This document shows, in pieces, positions 3,316 through 64,000 of a stretch of DNA of 64,000 nt. The stretch's first letter is position 1; each line of letters starts with the position of its first letter. This DNA comes from Holophagales bacterium (GTDB lineage Bacteria > Acidobacteriota > Thermoanaerobaculia > Multivoradales > Multivoraceae). Below the pieces are notes generated by a model that had not been told where the DNA came from, made no database searches, and worked only from the letters and a program-made list of their open reading frames with translations. The position numbers and the translations under genes were made by a program. Location of the stretch: NCBI GenBank assembly GCA_009837085.1, contig VXUF01000111.1, positions 13,497 to 77,496 of the forward strand, given 5' to 3'.

Positions 3316-5540
3316 CCGCCGAGGCCGAAGGACCGGAGCGCCGGTTCGAGTACGAAGACCTCAGAGGCGCGGTCGCCCCGTCAGCGGCGGACGGGGACCC
3401 GGGCGCCGGCTTCGAGGAGACCCTGCGCCGGTTGCTCGACCCCGGGAGCGCCCGGCGCAGCCTGCACTGGGGCCGCAGCTATCTCTACGAAGCCCGGTGG
3501 CGGCTGGCCGCAGAGGCGGGCGAGGCGGCCGTGGTCGTCAAGCAGTTCCGCCACGACGATCTGCGGGCGCGGCTACGCCGACGCCGGCGCGGCACTCGAG
3601 CTCGCCTGAGCTTCCGGGCCGCGCGACGGCTCCGTCGCCTCGGCATCTCGACGCCCGAACCCCTCCTCTACGCGGAATCGAAGACGATCGACGGCCCCGC
3701 CTGGTACGTTTGCCGGCTGGTGCCGGACGCGCTGGAGCTGCGCTACGTCCTGCGCGCCCTGAACGCCGGTGTCGCACCGGAGCAGTTTCCCGGAATCCAC
3801 GGCCCGACTCTGTTGCGGCGGGTCGGCGCGCTGGCGGCGGAGCTGCACCGCCACGGCGTCTGGTTCAGGGATCTGACCGCCGGCAATGTTCTCCTGTCGG
3901 AGCCGACCACCGATGCCGAGCTGTTCCTCGTCGACCTGAACCGCGCCCGTTTCCGGCGACGGCTGTCGACCAGTCAGCGGCTGCGGGACCTCAGCCGGAT
4001 GCCGGTGCTGCGGCAGGCGGACCGGGCCGAGTACCTTGCCGGCTACCGGCCGGGCGGCCTGTCGCGGCTTCAACGGATCTGGTTCGAGGCCTGCCACCAG
4101 GGCTTCCGTTTCAAGTTGGGATCGAAGCAGGGGGCGCGCCGGGGCTTGCGGCGCCTGTCCGATCTCCTGCTGCCACGCCGCCGCGCCCACCCCCATGTCC
4201 CCGAGGCGGAACGGGGAGCCACCACCACGGAGCGCACGGTCTGGGATCCGCTGACCGACCAGCCGCATCAGCAGGCCACTCGCGGCCAGCGCCTCGGCGT
4301 GCGCCTGCGCGACGCCGGCCACCACGCGCGGCCGCTGCTTCGATCGGCCGTGCCGCTGGCGCTGTCGGTCGCGGAGGCGCGTCGAGCGCGGCGTGTTCTC
4401 GACCGCGCGCCGGCGCCGGTCCGCTTCGGCGGCCTTGGCGTCGCGGTCGGTCCCGGCTCGGCTCCCGTCTCCTCCCTGGCCGGTGCGATCGACGATCTCC
4501 GGGTCGACACCGTACTCCTGCGCTTCCACCTCTGGCAGGGCGTGGACCCCGGCCTGGTGGAACTGGCGCGAACCCTCCGCTGCCGCGAGCGGCCGGTCGA
4601 CCTCGTGTTCCAGTTGAGCCAGGACCGCTCGCTGGTGCGGGACGGCGGGTTGTGGCGGCTGCGGGTCGAGGAGGCGGCGGCCGCGCTCGCGCCCTTCGGG
4701 CGCAGGTTCCTGATCGGTCAGGCGCCCAATCGCAGCAAGTGGGGCGTGTGGCGGCCCGCGGACTACTGGAACTTGCTGGCGGCAGGTGCGGAAGCGGTAC
4801 GGACTGAGTGCCCGGACGCCTGCGTTCTCGCCCCCGCGGTGATCGACTTCGAGCCTCACGCTACAGCCGCATTGATCCACTCGGGCTCGGCCGAGCGCCG
4901 CTTCGACGTTCTGGCGAGCCAGCTCTACGTCGACCGGCGGGGCGCCCCGGAAAACCGCCAGCTCGGTTTCGACCTGGCCGGCAAGCTGGCCGTCCTGAAC
5001 TCCCTGGCGCGGAGGGCCCCGGACTGCGCGTCGGGTCGGAGCTGGATCACCGAATTCAACTGGCCGCTCGCGGAGGGTCCGCATGCGCCCGCGGGCCGCG
5101 ATGTCGCGGTGGACGAGGACGCCCAGGCCAGCTACCTGGTCCGCTATGCGCTGGAGGCCCTGGGTAGCGGTCTGGCGGAGCGCGTCTACTGGTGGCAGTT
5201 GGCGGCAGCGGGCTACGGCCTGCTCGATCCCCGGGGCGACGGCCTCCGGCAGCGTCCGGCCTATCGCGCGCTGCGGCAGCTCCAGCGCGAGCTGGCAGGT
5301 GCGGAGGTCCTGCGCATACGGATGCCGTCAGGGCTACGTGGGTACCGGGCGCTTCAGGAAGGCCGCGACACCCGGGTCGTGTGGGCGTCGGGTGGCCGCG
5401 GTGGCTCCTACAGGCCTCAGGGGGAGGTGCGCGCGGTGCGGGACCGGGACGGCCGGAAGCTCGACCGGGTTCCCGCGGCGCTCAGCGGAGCGCCCGTGTA
5501 TCTCGAGTGCGAGGCCGGCGGCTCGGCCGGCGGAACGTAA
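3312..5540 (+). CDS. Two-domain protein: N-terminal lipopolysaccharide kinase (Kdo/WaaP family)-like domain fused to a C-terminal clan GH-A-like (TIM-barrel glycosidase-like) domain
   Basis: Kinase part: VVVKQFRHDD...RARLSFRAARRL..GISTPEPL, HGVWFRDLTAGNVLL, FLVDLNRARF. C-terminal part: WITEFNWP (nucleophile-Glu context), YWWQL. TTG start overlaps the rng stop (TTGA). Confidence 0.7.
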   Translation: MTAEAEGPERRFEYEDLRGAVAPSAADGDPGAGFEETLRRLLDPGSARRSLHWGRSYLYEARWRLAAEAGEAAVVVKQFRHDDLRARLRRRRRGTRARLSFRAARRLRRLGISTPEPLLYAESKTIDGPAWYVCRLVPDALELRYVLRALNAGVAPEQFPGIHGPTLLRRVGALAAELHRHGVWFRDLTAGNVLLSEPTTDAELFLVDLNRARFRRRLSTSQRLRDLSRMPVLRQADRAEYLAGYRPGGLSRLQRIWFEACHQGFRFKLGSKQGARRGLRRLSDLLLPRRRAHPHVPEAERGATTTERTVWDPLTDQPHQQATRGQRLGVRLRDAGHHARPLLRSAVPLALSVAEARRARRVLDRAPAPVRFGGLGVAVGPGSAPVSSLAGAIDDLRVDTVLLRFHLWQGVDPGLVELARTLRCRERPVDLVFQLSQDRSLVRDGGLWRLRVEEAAAALAPFGRRFLIGQAPNRSKWGVWRPADYWNLLAAGAEAVRTECPDACVLAPAVIDFEPHATAALIHSGSAERRFDVLASQLYVDRRGAPENRQLGFDLAGKLAVLNSLARRAPDCASGRSWITEFNWPLAEGPHAPAGRDVAVDEDAQASYLVRYALEALGSGLAERVYWWQLAAAGYGLLDPRGDGLRQRPAYRALRQLQRELAGAEVLRIRMPSGLRGYRALQEGRDTRVVWASGGRGGSYRPQGEVRAVRDRDGRKLDRVPAALSGAPVYLECEAGGSAGGT

Positions 5541-32041: not shown

Positions 32042-32553
32042 TGCGCAACCTACCCATTACGAGCGCCCTGGCCCTGGTCCTCGCCGCCCCTGTCGGGGCA
32101 GCCGAACAGAAGGACCACGGTCTGAGGGGCGCGAAGCACCCGGAACCGGGCGTCCTCTTCGGCGGGCAGCCGACCGAGAACCAGCTCAAGTCGATGGCGG
32201 CCGACGGCCTGTCCTTCGTCCTGGACCTGCGCGCCGAAGGCGAGAACCGGGGCTTCGACGAGCCGGCCGCGCTCCAGAGCCTCGACGTGCCCTACCTGAA
32301 CCTGCCGGTGGACGCGGAACGCCTCGAACAACCCGAGACCTTCGAGCGCTTCATCGAAGCGATGGACAAGGTGGACGGCCCGGTGCTCGTCCACTGCGCC
32401 TCGGGCAACCGGGTCGGCGCCCTCTACTACGCTTATCTGGTCGCCGGAAAGGGCGTGGACCGGGAAGAGGCCCGCACCCGCGCCAAGGACAACGGGCTGC
32501 GAAGCGCCGCGCTGGAGAAGGCGGTCGACCGCTACCTCGATTCGCGGCCCTGA
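32041..32553 (+). CDS. Secreted DUF442 / CX5R phosphatase-fold protein
   Basis: Signal peptide (LALVLAAPVGAAEQ), then VLFGGQPTENQL and a HCASGNRVG P-loop (CX5R). The ATG shares 1 nt with the sufT stop (TGATG). Confidence 0.65.
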   Translation: MRNLPITSALALVLAAPVGAAEQKDHGLRGAKHPEPGVLFGGQPTENQLKSMAADGLSFVLDLRAEGENRGFDEPAALQSLDVPYLNLPVDAERLEQPETFERFIEAMDKVDGPVLVHCASGNRVGALYYAYLVAGKGVDREEARTRAKDNGLRSAALEKAVDRYLDSRP

Positions 32554-32569
32554 GGAATCGGAGCCGTCG

Positions 32570-33388
32570 TTGCCGGGATGGACCCGCAGGTTACGACGCG
32601 CACGGGAAGACGCGTTGACTGACCGGCCGCCGGGCCTCGGCGCCACGCTGCGCAGGAACCTCCCGTTCTTCGCCATTGAGCTGGTGGTCGTCTTCGTTGG
32701 CGTCTACCTGGCTTTCCTCCTGGGCAATCGCCAGGCGGCCGAGCGCGAACAGGACGTGGCGCTGAAGTACCGCGAGGTCCTGATCTGCGACTTCGAGCTA
32801 CTCGTCTCGTTCCTGCACGAGCAACTGGAGGAACTGCGGCCGCACATCCAGGTCGTCCGGCAGATCGATGAAGGCCTTCAGCCGGACATTCCGTTGAGCG
32901 AGTTCTACTACCTGTACGACGACCGGGTCCTCCAGGCCGCTTTCGACAGCCAGAACTTCGAGTCGCTTGACAGCCGTCTGGTGCAGGCCGTTGTGAGGGG
33001 CAGAATCCTGCTCCGGTCGCTGGAACAGTACGTCGACCGCCTGAACGCATTCACGACGACGACTCTGGCGCCGATGGAGCGGGACGGCGACCGCCGCTAC
33101 TACGATGACGAGGGCAATCTGCTTCCTCACCTGGAGGCGTACCCGCGGCTCGTTCGGCGGGCCGCACGCGTGAACGCGGGGCTGCAGAACATCCTGCGCG
33201 GGGAAGCCCTGTTCAGCCTGCACATCGAAACGATGGGTTTCGATCTGGAAGAACTCGTAAGGTTCGATGCCGACGACCCTGGCACCCCCGAACCACTGAA
33301 GGACGCCGTGACTCGCGCGATGGAACTGGCCCGGTTCGACCTGGAGAATCCGTGCTCTCGCGGCTTTGCCAGCTTGCAGGAGCCCTGA
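32570..33388 (+). CDS. Hypothetical single-pass membrane protein
   Basis: One N-terminal TM segment ([19 protein letters not shown]) followed by about 220 aa with ordinary, non-shadow composition. No family recognised. The TTG start is uncertain. Confidence 0.4.
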
Positions 33389-60627: not shown

Positions 60628-61326
60628 GTGAACCGGCGGGGCCCCTTCCTGCTCGACGAGCGAAGCCTGGACTTTCCGCCTCCGGAGCTCGCCGATCCGA
60701 GCGGCTTGCTGGCGGTGGGCGGCGATCTCGAACCGGAGCGCCTGCTGGCCGCGTACCGGGCAGGCATCTTTCCCTGGCCGCTCCTGGGCGTCGACGGGCC
60801 CATGCTCTGGTTCTCTCCCGAGCCGCGGCTGGTGCTCTATCCGGAGCGGTTCCGCGCTTCGCGGAGCCTCCGCAAGGAGCTGCGGCACGGCCGTTTCGAG
60901 GTCACTGTCGACTCGCGTTTCCGGGAAGTCATGACCGCCTGCGCCGAGGACCGTCCGGGCAGGCCGGGCACCTGGATCACACAGCCCCTCATCGATGCGT
61001 TCGATCGCCTGCACCGCCGGGGCTTCGCTCACTCGGTCGAGTGTCTGGCGGATGGCGAACTGGCCGGCGGCCTCTACGGGGTCGCCGTCGGCGGCGCGTT
61101 CTTCGGCGAGTCGATGTTCGCGCGGCGTTCGAACGCCTCCAAGGTCGCCTTGGTCTACCTTGTCGAGCGCCTGCGGAACTGGGGCTTTGCGTTCATCGAT
61201 TGCCAGCAGGTCACGGAGCATCTTCTGCGCCTCGGAGCCGAGGAGGTCGCGCGGACCCGCTTCCTGAGTGAACTCGCCGCAGCCGTCGACCTGCCTGGCC
61301 GCTCCGGTTCCTGGCGGGATTCCTAG
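60628..61326 (+). CDS. aat: Leucyl/phenylalanyl-tRNA--protein transferase
   Basis: PSGLLAVGGDLEPERLLAAYRAGIFPW, WFSPEPRLVL, GGLYGVAVGGAFFGESMF. GTG start at 60628. Confidence 0.88.
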   Translation: MNRRGPFLLDERSLDFPPPELADPSGLLAVGGDLEPERLLAAYRAGIFPWPLLGVDGPMLWFSPEPRLVLYPERFRASRSLRKELRHGRFEVTVDSRFREVMTACAEDRPGRPGTWITQPLIDAFDRLHRRGFAHSVECLADGELAGGLYGVAVGGAFFGESMFARRSNASKVALVYLVERLRNWGFAFIDCQQVTEHLLRLGAEEVARTRFLSELAAAVDLPGRSGSWRDS

Positions 61327-62315
61327 CTCTGCCGGTGCGAGGCTCGGAGATTGTCGACCAGTTGCGCCAGCCGGCCAAGGACGGCGTCACCGATTCGCGC
61401 ACTCACTTCGGTCTGGAAGGCGAGGATCTCGTCGTCCGAGCCATCGTAGGCCTCGGTCCACAGCACGGTGCCGTCCTTCGCGAGCAGGAGCCGCGCCCAC
61501 ACCCGGAGCCTGCCTTCCTCGCGCTGAACGCGGCCGTCAAGGACGAAGTCGGCGTTGACACCGGGCACCGACATGCCGATCTCGAGATCTGGCCCGGTGT
61601 CCTTGGCCACGACCGCGAGATTCTGCGAGCCGTGGCGGGCGAGGGACGTGATGAGCTCCTGGGCCAGAGCCTGCCGGAAAGGCTCGGCCCCGGCCCAGTT
61701 CTCGAGGGCGGCGAAGGGCAGGACCGCCAGCACGTGGCGCGGGGCCTCGTCGGCGGTGCCGGGCCGCGAGTCCATGGCGTGCCAGACCAGGACTGTGAGG
61801 ATAAGGCCAACGGCCGCGCCCACCACAGCGAGCGTTGCGGCCGCTATCCGACGAGTCCGCGGGAAGACGTTCGGGACGGTCGACGCGGCCCCCGAGGCCC
61901 GGAGCGGCGGACCGCTGTTCCCGACTTCCATCACGGGCTGCAGGAATCGATAGCCAATCCGCGGAAGCGTCTCGATGTAGCGGGGAGCCACCGCGCTGTC
62001 GCCGAGCGCCACTCGAACGCGTTTGACGCAGGAGTTCATGCTCTGATCGAACTCGACGTGGATCTCGTCGGGCCAGAGGTGGCGTCGAACGGCCTCGCGC
62101 GATACGACGGCGCCGCGGCTGGCGATCAGCAGGTGAAGCAGCTTGGCGGGCTGGGGCTGGAGCCGAACGGTCTCTCGGTCGCTGTGCAGTTCGAGTGTTT
62201 CGGGGTCGAAGTCGAACTCGCCGAAGCGGAGGCGGCGCCACTGGCCGCTGGCGGGGCCCCGGCCGCTGCCGCGCCTGGGCGCTGCCTCTCGCGACGTGCG
62301 GTTACCGCGCTGCAT
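61323..62315 (-). CDS. Membrane-anchored winged-helix (OmpR/PhoB-type, CadC/ToxR-like) transcriptional regulator
   Basis: FGEFDFDPETLELHSDRETVRLQPQPAKLLHLLI...YIETLPRIGYRF, then one TM segment (AAATLAVVGAAVGLILTVLVW) and a periplasmic domain. Confidence 0.75.
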   Translation of the reverse strand: MQRGNRTSREAAPRRGSGRGPASGQWRRLRFGEFDFDPETLELHSDRETVRLQPQPAKLLHLLIASRGAVVSREAVRRHLWPDEIHVEFDQSMNSCVKRVRVALGDSAVAPRYIETLPRIGYRFLQPVMEVGNSGPPLRASGAASTVPNVFPRTRRIAAATLAVVGAAVGLILTVLVWHAMDSRPGTADEAPRHVLAVLPFAALENWAGAEPFRQALAQELITSLARHGSQNLAVVAKDTGPDLEIGMSVPGVNADFVLDGRVQREEGRLRVWARLLLAKDGTVLWTEAYDGSDDEILAFQTEVSARIGDAVLGRLAQLVDNLRASHRQS

Positions 62316-62635
62316 GGGCTGGCTTCTCGACTGCTACGTGGGGCGAAGGTTCCCTGCTCCGGGATCCGGTTCTCCGCGCTTGCGGGACCGAACCCCGAGT
62401 TTTCGATAACTCTAAAGGACACTACGCTCGGAGCATTCCGGACGGCGCGTGACGTTTGGCTGACCAGTCTCTGACCGCGGAGGTGCGTGCCCGGCCGGCG
62501 GACGTCTCTCGCCGGCGACGGACTCCGGTGGGCGGCCTTTCGAGCGGACCGCAGGCGTGGTGTGCCTTGGTAGCTGCCGTAAGTTACTGGTGGGGTTGCA
62601 CTTACGGGCGTGCCGTGCTAGGGTTCCGCCGGGCC

Positions 62636-63420
62636 AAAAAAGAGGATAGGGACCGCTTCAGGAGTTTCGCCCGAATCGACCTCAGCCTCTCACCCACCGT
62701 TCGCATCTCCTGGACCACTACAGCTTGGCGGGCATGGGTCTTGGAGCGCGAGCGCGCCACCAGCCGGGCCTCCCTTTCGCTCGTCTCCCCCTCCGGGTCT
62801 TCCGCTGAAGCTTGCGCTCCTGCGGTTGCCCCTTCGGCGTTGACGGCCGAACGGTCCGCAACGTCTTGCCTCAGGCAACCGACTCCTTGGCTTTCGCCTC
62901 CGAGCCTACCGCCCTGCGGCTCGCCGCCGCGGGGGCTCGCCGAAGCCTGGCCTCTGCCGACCTGACGCCTGCGGGGCACTCCGTCGCTCGACTGGTCGGG
63001 TCTCACGACGAAGCCCCCGTAGGGTCTGCCGACGGAGGCACTTCAGTTACCGGTTGGCTTTCCGTTGCTGCCGGGCAACTTCCGGCCGTCCGCTTCCCTG
63101 AAGCCGCCTTCCCAGTTGCGCCTCCGTCCGGCTTTCGCTTTTCGGTGCCGCTCCCGGGAAGACTGTCGGCCACGGGAGCCACTCGATGACTGGAACTGTT
63201 CGGAACCTGGATTCCCTTCGGCTTGCGCCTCCGAGTCCCCCGAACTCCGAGCGGCTCCTGCCGCCGAGCCCGGCTTCCGAGTCGTGACCCTCCAACCTTC
63301 GCCTTCAAGGGGCGCCCACCACGCGAACGTGACTTTCGCCCTTCTCAGGCTCCGATCCGAAGGTCGCGTCTCAGGACCGGTGGATCAGGATGCGATTCTT
63401 GGTCACAGTCCCTATCCGCG
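62636..63420 (-). ncRNA. Candidate large (~785 nt) structured non-coding RNA of unassigned family
   Basis: Gene-free gap with promoter-like TTGACA-18-TACGTT. GGAUAGGGAC (63417-63408) pairs with GUCCCUAUCC (62653-62644), followed by UCUUUUUU. Strand-specific GNRA hairpins: GCGAAAG x4, GCGCAAG x2. Several 7-8-bp internal helices. Boundaries inferred, not measured. Confidence 0.55.
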
Positions 63421-63424
63421 AAAC

Positions 63425-63454
63425 AACGTACAGGCCGTGTGAAGGGTGTGTCAA
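63425..63454 (-). promoter_or_regulatory. Putative sigma70-type promoter of the candidate RNA
   Basis: On the minus strand: TTGACA (63454-63449), 18-nt spacer, TACGTT (63430-63425). The closing-helix 5' strand begins 7 nt downstream. Confidence 0.4.
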
Positions 63455-63639
63455 GGCGGCGTTTCTCGCCGGTAGCGGGACAGAACTCCCGGGCCGGCGG
63501 TAACTAGCTTCGTTGCTGTCAGTTACGAGTCTCGGGCGCCGGTTGGGAAGTTCTGGAAGGCACTGCGGAATTGCTGCGGATTCTCCAGACTCTCGGCGGC
63601 GGCGGTCCGGAACGGGGGCCGTCGCGGGGTTCGCGCAGA

Positions 63640-63715
63640 TGGTGCCCAGGGGCGGATTCGAACCACCGACACCCTGATTTTCAGTCAGGTGCTCTACCAA
63701 CTGAGCTACCTGGGC
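63640..63715 (-). tRNA. tRNA-Phe (GAA), CCA encoded
   Basis: GCCCAGG-TA-GCTC-AGTTGGTA-GAGC-A-CCTGA-CTGAAAA-TCAGG-GTGTC-GGTGG-TTCGAAT-CCGCC-CCTGGGC-A-CCA. Confidence 0.93.
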
Positions 63716-63820
63716 AGGGTCGCGCGTGACGGGTCGCACGGCAGGGGAGGTTTCTAGCAGCTTGCGGCGTAGAAACGCAACGGGTGAGGCATTCCCGCAT
63801 GCTACGCTGCGCCGACGCCG

Positions 63821-64000
63821 ATGCTCCCCGTTCGCCGCGCACTGGTTTCGGTCTTCGACAAGACGGGCCTGGAGCATCTGGGTTCGGGTCTGGCGAAGCT
63901 GGGTGTTGAGATCATCTCCACCGGCGGCACGGCACGGCAACTCGCGGAACGCGGTGTGCCGGTGACCGCGGTATCCGAGATCACGGGCCATCCCGAGATT
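63821..64000 (+). CDS. purH: Bifunctional AICAR transformylase/IMP cyclohydrolase, N-terminal 60 codons (runs off the window)
   Basis: My own translation from ATG 63821: [60 protein letters not shown], the MGS-like domain of PurH. Not in the ORF track because no stop is reached. Confidence 0.9.

Follow-up and report, generated by a model that had tools for sequence, protein, structure and literature searches.

A predicted 0.8-kb structured RNA of an undescribed family, with paired ends and a pseudoknot, in one clade of Thermoanaerobaculia (Acidobacteriota)

Beyond ribosomal RNA, RNase P RNA and introns, few bacterial RNA classes exceed approximately 500 nucleotides (nt) and have complex conserved folds (OLE, GOLLD, ROOL, HEARO and raiA); these classes are mechanistically unusual, encompassing nanocages, a membrane ribonucleoprotein and nuclease guide RNAs. 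To our knowledge, Acidobacteriota and uncultured sponge symbionts have barely been covered by earlier RNA surveys. GOLLD, of approximately 800 nt, combines many stems, GNRA loops and at least one pseudoknot with a position near a transfer RNA (tRNA) gene, and consists of conserved and variable parts; ROOL is large and ornate, with multiple predicted pseudoknots, no known protein partner and a frequent position near tRNAs; both are phage or prophage RNAs near tRNA islands, and both form nanocages (PMC12286853). OLE RNA works with membrane proteins encoded nearby (PMC12265935). The element treated here lies in a 64,000-nt stretch of a Holophagales genome (Acidobacteriota, Thermoanaerobaculia; assembly GCA_009837085.1, contig VXUF01000111.1), which is called the window throughout and whose numbering is used for all positions; its minus strand at 63417-62636 very probably encodes a real structured non-coding RNA that is transcribed as a unit of its own and belongs to a family not described before. 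As judged from sequence comparison, the element is conserved as RNA and not as protein, and its predicted multi-domain fold includes a 13-base-pair (bp) helix that joins its ends and at least one pseudoknot. The RNA and its two nearest neighbors on the same strand are as follows:

62636-63417, minus strand: predicted mature RNA of approximately 782 nt, its start placed 7-8 nt past a -10 hexamer and its end at a U-run
63640-63715, minus strand: tRNA-Phe (GAA), found with Rfam and ARAGORN, 220 nt upstream of the RNA and outside it
61323-62315, minus strand: regulator gene, 320 nt downstream of the RNA, with a winged-helix Trans_reg_C domain (PF00486, E = 1.5e-14) followed by a hydrophobic stretch that is probably membrane-spanning

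The original prediction, made from the bare sequence, had found no consensus to which this RNA could be matched, and database searches lead to the same result. Across the whole window, cmscan against Rfam 15 at gathering scores returned four tRNAs only, of which tRNA-Phe alone falls in the gap that holds the RNA; ARAGORN also found only tRNAs in the window, and no transfer-messenger RNA (tmRNA). Permissive searches (E <= 10) of 62200-63760 added only noise (one tRNA-antisense match, and one small nucleolar and one long non-coding RNA at E ~8), and those of the most divergent homolog (L093, 11300-12300; homologous loci carry the letter L and a number) yielded noise and no family. The models of GOLLD (RF01998), ROOL (RF03087) and OLE (RF01071) had no match in either region even at E = 10, and those of RNase P RNA, signal recognition particle (SRP) RNA, 6S RNA, group I and II introns, HEARO/omega RNAs and retron non-coding RNAs likewise gave no Rfam match. 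Searches of the literature turned up no account of such an RNA; since it matches no described family, we take it to represent an undescribed one. That it is instead a very divergent member of a known large class (RNase P RNA, a group I or II intron, tmRNA, OLE or HEARO/omega) missed by Rfam is highly improbable: extreme outliers can escape Rfam models, and the size and the pairing of the 5' end with the 3' end in a terminal helix are reminiscent of RNase P RNA and similar RNAs, yet the permissive searches (1.5 kb from the window, 1 kb from L093) returned only noise matches to eukaryotic families, ARAGORN detected no tmRNA, and no genes for a maturase, reverse transcriptase, TnpB or IscB occur in the loci. 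The 5' end is not GUGYG and a hairpin resembling intron domain V was not seen, which presumably also argues against an intron.

The comparison with the described classes shows likeness in build and difference in context. With GOLLD the RNA shares the size class, the ornate stems with GNRA loops, a pseudoknot, the tRNA neighbor, and the combination of conserved and variable parts; unlike GOLLD, it does not match the family model (a conserved 3' half with stems and a pseudoknot), and it is a single-copy chromosomal element at a housekeeping locus with no viral match. With ROOL it shares large size, ornate structure and a nearby tRNA; it does not match the ROOL model, and whereas ROOL is shorter and borne by phages or prophages, the present RNA is chromosomal and confined, in the searches made, to one Thermoanaerobaculia clade. 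The chromosomal housekeeping context, the single copy and the lack of phage or plasmid matches together indicate that it is a member of neither family; the likeness to both that the original prediction had drawn is confined to size and tRNA adjacency, the locus being chromosomal, syntenic, single-copy and free of any phage link. OLE is comparable as a large (~600 nt), highly conserved chromosomal non-coding RNA of restricted lineages, and here, too, the next gene encodes an apparently membrane-anchored protein, with a nucleic acid-binding winged helix, an RNA-protein link being purely conjectural; in contrast to OLE, the RNA matches no OLE model, occurs in Acidobacteriota and not in Bacillota, and has no OapA, OapB or OapC homologs in its locus. 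Finally, paired ends, a near-invariant core with variable arms, and a stand-alone gene with its own promoter are reminiscent of RNase P RNA, 6S RNA, SRP RNA and tmRNA, from which the RNA differs by lacking a model match and by its narrow distribution; its absence from the locus in three related genomes is odd for an essential RNA.

The likeness to GOLLD and ROOL raises the alternative that a phage, prophage or integrative element brought the RNA in as cargo next to tRNA-Phe, which would make it a distant functional analog of these RNAs that has become fixed in the clade. Its position directly downstream of a tRNA gene would fit, as would its absence from some related genomes and the condition of the same tRNA-Phe flank in distant Thermoanaerobaculia, which is consistent with an insertion hot spot; GOLLD and ROOL are themselves large, ornate and often near tRNA islands (PMC12286853). 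Yet the locus contains neither an integrase nor a phage gene, and a search for att-type direct repeats of the tRNA 3' end found none (an imperfect inverted match of 13 nt, at 62563-62575, to the 5' end of the tRNA is probably due to chance); the RNA is single-copy in the window and syntenic across genomes with 73-93% identical PurH; blastn against plasmids matched only tRNA, and blastn against 50,697 phage records matched nothing; a scan of IMG/VR viral contigs with two invariant motifs had no match; and GOLLD and ROOL are absent at E = 10. An origin as mobile cargo is therefore very unlikely.

Evidence for the RNA as a conserved entity comes from its relatives. A protein search with PurH, encoded beside the locus, produced a graded series of sequences from 73% to 93% identity that led to the loci of related genomes, where nhmmer found the RNA in L087, L088, L090/L091, L093, L095, L096, L097 and L098. 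The homolog search proposed with the original prediction has in all recovered eleven full-length relatives (L007, L087, L088, L090, L091, L093, L095, L096, L097, L098 and L112) of 700-870 nt, with pairwise identities of 63-99%, which represent about nine independent lineages of one narrow clade; a twelfth, L121, is a fragment ended by the end of its contig. When JGI metagenomes were scanned for the invariant 17-mer GGATAGGGACTGTGACC, 27 loci came up, of which 25 were chance hits and only L112 and L121 were real. 'Candidatus Multivorans thiocomprendens' (GTDB; PurH 93% identical) carries the RNA at 91% identity, and the next GTDB relatives by PurH are Thermoanaerobaculia at 59-65% identity; in distant Thermoanaerobaculia (L008, L009, L012), the synteny search found a gap of ~1 kb 3' of tRNA-Phe and no RNA in it. 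In the searches made, the distribution comprises one clade of Thermoanaerobaculia metagenome-assembled genomes (MAGs), which is probably sponge-associated, going by record names only.

The locus does not look protein-coding. Open reading frames (ORFs) in the gap reach at most 206 amino acids (aa) and none is credible, as had been noted from the sequence; six independent public assemblies of the locus have no gene call here. A search with the regulator protein placed the window in the MAG assemblies GCA_009845005.1 and GCA_009842005.1 and in ENA assemblies with the name ENGE20-1. Among ten sequence pairs, only 4 of the 97 indels tallied are multiples of three, and the longest stop-free stretch switches strand and frame from one homolog to the next without any common ORF; frame-breaking indels and the lack of a shared ORF thus argue against a protein gene. 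A protein search with the joined six-frame translation (a 1,779-aa query) found no match, with the limit that low-complexity words probably crowded out candidates, and for a spurious ORF on the L088 copy, a search of 5.8 billion proteins found four relatives and no more, which makes the RNA family look rare. Gene callers have placed hypothetical proteins of 198-255 aa without Pfam match over some homologs, on either strand (L088 3723-4490; L098 7731-8327; L090/L091 1-575); these are almost certainly spurious annotations. At the same time, the RNA is under purifying selection: its identity to the window copy is 0.93, 0.86, 0.77 and 0.70 in L007, L087, L090 and L093, close to that of the whole purH DNA of the same genomes (0.91, 0.88, 0.80 and 0.75) and well above that of purH fourfold-degenerate sites (0.77, 0.67, 0.56 and 0.52), which roughly corresponds to the constraint on a housekeeping coding gene.

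The minus strand of the window folds at -406.5 kcal/mol (z = -6.6 relative to dinucleotide shuffles; plus strand, z = -3.0). Six GNRA hairpins with at least three closing base pairs occur on the minus strand and not one on the plus strand, compared to a window mean of 1.24±1.15 per strand per 785 nt and a dinucleotide-shuffle mean of 2.2±1.5; the strand-specific enrichment that had drawn attention to the locus is accordingly confirmed, as are the underlying motif positions (ctttcgc at 62774, 62891, 63132 and 63333, four of the seven that the window contains; cttgcgc at 62811 and 63222). RNAalifold, applied to 11-12 sequences in an alignment whose variable domains are MAFFT-based and not structure-based, predicts 205-260 pairs depending on the scoring. 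In its first consensus, 93.7% of 2,917 cells are paired and 45 pairs change on both sides, compared to 20.3±3.0 after column shuffling (0 of 500 shuffles reach this number) and 11-15 in a slid control in which the partners are moved by 1-3 columns; the final consensus, which includes the pseudoknot, has 254 pairs, 94.3% paired cells and 46 double-sided pairs (shuffled, 20.3±2.9, 0 of 500; slid, 10-15). Because the consensus derives from the same alignment, the count was repeated with the minimum-free-energy (MFE) fold of the window sequence only; over 12 sequences, this fold is 87.9% paired with 39 double-sided pairs (shuffled, 20.9±3.0, 0 of 500; slid, 8-17). By the tool's own calibration, unstructured sequences evolved on a tree rarely (0-1%) exceed such a count of double-sided pairs. 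Paired cells contain 279 G-U and 57 A-C combinations; the G-U excess is consistent with the minus strand as the RNA strand, and the promoter orientation, the U-run and a purine skew (the minus strand is rich in G and A over exactly the RNA stretch) agree. A de novo scan for complementary runs gave 145 candidates, noisy in this GC-rich alignment, and was used only to spot the pseudoknot and competing helices.

These results bear on the alternative of a decayed pseudogene, a protein gene missed by annotation, or a non-functional GC-rich spacer with composition-driven structure. GC-rich DNA produces many chance helices, as the 145 scan candidates illustrate, and the MFE-based test of the window against L007 alone is not significant; yet conservation well above neutral sites, frame-breaking indels, preserved promoter boxes, the lack of a six-frame protein match, the four lone relatives of the spurious ORF among billions of proteins, and covariation above every control leave this explanation hardly conceivable. 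The discrete minus-strand structured RNA of ~785 nt first proposed for this gap is supported by sharp boundaries, purifying selection, frame-breaking indels, and approximately twice the double-sided changes of shuffled alignments.

The boundaries of the predicted RNA are marked by the following features:

63449-63454, minus strand: -35 hexamer TTGACA; CTTGACA invariant in 11 of the 11 aligned sequences with flanks
63425-63430, minus strand: -10 hexamer TACGTT, in 10 of the 11 sequences; TAGCTT in L093
63405-63417, minus strand: 5' strand of closing helix P1, GGAUAGGGACUGU, pairing with 62644-62656
62644-62656, minus strand: 3' strand of P1, GCGGUCCCUAUCC, pairing with 63405-63417
62636-62643, minus strand: U-run UCUUUUUU directly after P1, kept as at least four U in 12 of 12 sequences

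Conservation begins exactly at the -35 hexamer, and the sequence upstream is diverged or unalignable. In the same 11-sequence alignment, the 18-nt spacer between the hexamers is fixed in length, free of indels and variable in sequence, and the 20 nt after the -10 hexamer are invariant. The promoter had been predicted with these coordinates and this spacer, and conservation supports it; the -10 box itself is weak, and a simple promoter scan did not flag it. With a start 7-8 nt past the -10 box, the first nucleotide of the RNA would be the first base of P1, so that the ends appear well defined by conservation. P1 joins the first and last nucleotides of the RNA by 13 bp, of which 11 are invariant and two change on one side (U-G/U-A) in 12 sequences; the closing helix had been described as 10 bp (GGAUAGGGAC, 63417-63408 with 62653-62644), which is a perfect complement and falls short of the full length. 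The U-run right behind it was also foreseen, and AAAAAAGA occurs only once in the 64-kb window; we interpret this run as a putative intrinsic-terminator tail and 3' end. Two disruptions of the locus, the rearrangement in L093 and the insertion of an IS110 element in L087, both lie just upstream of the -35 box and leave promoter and RNA intact, which fits an independent transcription unit.

Transcription would accordingly be expected to start at about G63417 from the TTGACA-N18-TACGTT promoter. Since P1 is directly followed by the U-run, termination may occur by closure of the whole RNA: the P1 3' strand, which directly precedes the U-run, would pair with the 5' end and stop transcription, the entire folded RNA serving as the terminator hairpin, and the paired ends could then shield the RNA from exonucleases. 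The silence of a terminator scan at the U-run is explained by this architecture, in which the 'hairpin' is the whole RNA; a 13-bp end-to-end helix with an immediate U-run suggests a terminator whose hairpin consists of 780 nt.

The overall fold comprises the nested closing helices P1, P1a and P1b with a long-range helix (63383-63375 with 62764-62757), a 5' hairpin domain, a variable-armed stem, the pseudoknot, a three-helix domain, a 17-bp hairpin, two variable arm domains and a 3' hairpin domain:

63279-63372, minus strand: Domain 1, a long irregular hairpin with an invariant GUCACG-UUCG-CGUGGU tip and an internal hairpin with a GAAA-type loop
63182-63268, minus strand: Domain 2, a variable GCAA-capped arm on a stem (63268-63254 with 63196-63182)
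63106-63179, minus strand: pseudoknot of S1, GCUCCCG/CGGGAGC (63179-63173 with 63156-63150), and S2, GUCUUCC/GGAAGGC (63163-63157 with 63112-63106)
63038-63105, minus strand: Domain 3, three stacked helices with an invariant CCGGCA hairpin loop
62973-63018, minus strand: Domain 4, a 17-bp hairpin with hardly any variation, which has a tandem G-A internal loop and CCGACCA as its loop
62776-62932, minus strand: variable Domains 5 and 6, GNRA- and UUCG-capped arms that include the module CUCGGAGGCGMAAGCC
62702-62750, minus strand: Domain 8, a 3' hairpin around the invariant GCCCGCCAAGCUG
62657-62675, minus strand: last hairpin, UUCGGG...CCUGAA, before the P1 3' strand; 100% paired with two one-sided pairs

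Covariation is spread over most of these domains. Six of the 30 pairs of Domain 1 (helices 6-9) change on both sides (for example columns 80:126, C-G in six and U-A in five sequences); the Domain 2 stem is 100% paired with four covarying pairs, and its arm is deleted in L095 and extended by a 17-nt hairpin in L007. The two crossing helices of the pseudoknot, with a GNRA hairpin between them, are each 96% paired, S1 with one pair that changes from G-C to A-U and S2 with two double-sided pairs (C-G/U-A). Domain 3 (helices 21-23) is 95-100% paired with four covarying pairs (for example columns 362:402, A-U in six, G-C in four and C-G in one); its CCGGCA loop is complementary to the invariant GCCGGGC at 63274-63268, a candidate contact that carries no covariation signal, both partners being invariant. 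Domain 4 is 100% paired in 12 sequences, with 14 of 17 pairs that never vary, two one-sided and one double-sided. The block 62932-62776, with 14 covarying pairs (helices 27-35), is missing in L097 and almost entirely in L093, and Domain 8 (helices 40-41) is 91% paired with two covarying pairs. Just upstream of Domain 8, an extra GCAA-capped domain, of ~80 nt in most and ~40 nt in L093, is inserted in L090, L091, L093, L095-L098 and L112, and not in the window, L007, L087 or L088. Thus indels remove or add whole hairpin arms between lineages, and the core is nearly invariant; modular gain and loss of arms is typical of large structured RNAs. Of three helices that had been proposed by hand, only GCUCCCG/CGGGAGC, the S1 of the pseudoknot, shows conservation and covariation. 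For CUCCGUCG/CGACGGAG, pairing across the family amounts to 72%, and the 3' strand of this helix belongs instead with CUUCGUCG in the invariant 17-bp hairpin; for GGUUGCC/GGCAACC, pairing amounts to 57%, and the helix persists only among the nearest relatives.

Two copies of the module CUCGGAGGCGMAAGCC(R)AGG lie in the window RNA (62889-62906 and 63220-63237 in plus-strand coordinates), and both sites are conserved in relatives. The module is a GNRA hairpin of 3 bp with a flanking 3x3 internal loop rich in purines; similar GGAG..GCAA.. units fill the extra domain of other lineages. The repetition suggests duplication of arms, or a repeated binding or docking unit.

As a caveat, several observations weigh against an independently transcribed RNA with this fold. 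The start of transcription, the 3' end and a role of P1 as terminator are deduced from conservation, and the -10 hexamer TACGTT matches TATAAT at only three of six positions; this explains why the promoter remains below the threshold of a simple scan, and its support consists of conservation. P1 and much of the core are invariant, so that covariation is silent on their pairing, and with about nine lineages of a single clade, some of the 'covariations' are single events. The pairwise test that uses L007 and the window MFE fold alone is underpowered, with 11 changed pairs kept and 12 broken compared to null values of 13 and 16 (P ~0.07); an RNAalifold version on the same pair, in which 15 of 15 changed pairs were kept, was discarded as circular. 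RNAalifold with and without ribosum scoring disagrees in places, which renders the model partly uncertain. In Domain 2, a local hairpin GGCGGC-AGGA-GCCGCU (63265-63260 with 63255-63250), which changes from C-G to U-A in about half of the sequences, overlaps the stem 63262-63254/63196-63188, whose covarying positions fall within the AGGA 'loop'; two mutually exclusive covarying pairings at 63265-63250 could represent a second pseudoknot or a conformational switch. The RNA is not at the locus in three related genomes (L089, L092 and L094) and may thus be dispensable. Finally, the regulator gene lies downstream of the RNA in all ten loci where that side is visible, at a distance of 265-415 nt in most, and such a constant position would equally be expected of a cis-regulatory element.

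A regulatory link to the downstream membrane-anchored regulator ranks as the main rival. In its explicit form, the RNA would be a giant cis leader or attenuator of the ToxR/CadC-like Trans_reg_C gene, in which P1 and the U-run terminate transcription until a signal that blocks P1 allows read-through. In its favor, RNA and regulator share a strand, with the RNA upstream in 10 of 10 visible loci, the L093 rearrangement has split the RNA from tRNA-Phe and not from the regulator, and the terminator-like element is made by the closing helix of the RNA itself. Yet L094 retains tRNA-Phe, the regulator and its conserved upstream region with unrelated sequence in place of the RNA, so that the regulator appears to have its own promoter region, conserved at 62475-62316; the spacer 62577-62480 is diverged and rich in indels; no alternative antiterminator pairing was identified; and aat, ychF and a lipase gene are equally syntenic within this narrow clade, which makes adjacency alone weak evidence for a cis link. 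We know of no leader of such size and complexity, and consider this form of the link doubtful. The 160 nt before the regulator gene (62316-62475) are well conserved between the window and L007 and include GUCCUUUAGAGUUAUCGAAAACUC, with a related stretch in the RNA-less L094; they are probably the promoter and 5' untranslated region of the regulator.

If the RNA is an independent transcript, as we prefer to read it, the invariant core, together with the numerous GNRA arms and the invariant loops, points to compact tertiary folding. The RNA may then act in trans as a compact structural RNA, be it a scaffold for a ribonucleoprotein, an RNA-only assembly formed through GNRA and invariant loops, or a ribozyme; this assignment is of low certainty. 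Among the functions considered, a trans-acting scaffold or assembly is our tentative choice; a cis- or co-regulatory connection to the membrane regulator is unlikely, some other function is to be rated the same, and a ribozyme is more doubtful still. A bolder proposal, which we regard as rather improbable, is a new class of large 'ornate' chromosomal RNAs of ~0.8 kb, specific to a clade of uncultured symbionts, that build a higher-order particle as OLE, ROOL and GOLLD do, either as a homo-oligomer held by GNRA arms and invariant loops (for example the CCGG loop of Domain 3) or as a membrane-tethered ribonucleoprotein with the downstream winged-helix protein. An additional large RNA class would supply a new object for structural and functional study, and indicates that long-read symbiont MAGs still conceal large RNAs; a bounded construct (63417-62636) and a 12-sequence alignment are at hand for structure and ribozyme work. 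The rarity and narrow distribution of the family limit its general reach.

The wider neighborhood is conserved. Read on the minus strand from the window end, the order is tRNA-Phe, a 220-nt spacer, the RNA region, a 320-nt spacer and the regulator gene, with the purH start at 63822 on the opposite strand (read from the sequence, in agreement with gene calls). The order purH-tRNAPhe-RNA-regulator-aat-ychF is syntenic in the relatives with 73-93% identical PurH, and the housekeeping neighbors pyrG, kdsB, lolA, purH, aat and ychF occur in every locus. tRNA-Phe adjoins the RNA in 10 of 11 homologous loci that show the upstream flank (that of L112 being outside this count); in L093 the RNA is parted from tRNA-Phe, and in L087 an IS110-family transposase gene (3421-4479; DEDD_Tnp_IS110, Transposase_20), present in this genome only, separates tRNA-Phe from the intact promoter and RNA. 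The spacer between tRNA and promoter has no conservation. L089 and L092 have neither the tRNA nor the RNA at the locus, and no remnants of the RNA were found in L089, L092, L094 or elsewhere in the window; the RNA-free spacer of L094 (8090-8704) contains a tandem-like direct repeat, GGTGTCAGGCCCGACATCTGCGACGAG, in two copies.

In the distant Thermoanaerobaculia, the flank of ~1 kb 3' of tRNA-Phe holds unrelated small genes (L008 2950-3970, L012 1820-2890 and L009 3800-4750), some of which resemble toxin-antitoxin pairs by eye (PIN/VapC-like in L008, HicA/HicB-like in L012), so that this flank seems to be a variable insertion spot. Elsewhere in the window, 32401-33185 on the plus strand is the only other tile with six GNRA hairpins; it carries several overlapping ORFs of 170-270 aa, and the number may well be due to chance. 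Directly after the U-run, a further ~60 nt (62577-62622, minus strand) containing AACCUAGCAC are conserved in all homologs but L093; they include an inverted repeat, CCGUAAGU-N15-ACUUACGG (62607-62600 with 62584-62577), whose loop varies and which is not followed by a U-run; at this position L093 has a different hairpin (CCGAC...GUCGG). The stretch might extend the RNA at its 3' end, serve as an operator for a protein or be a site of processing.

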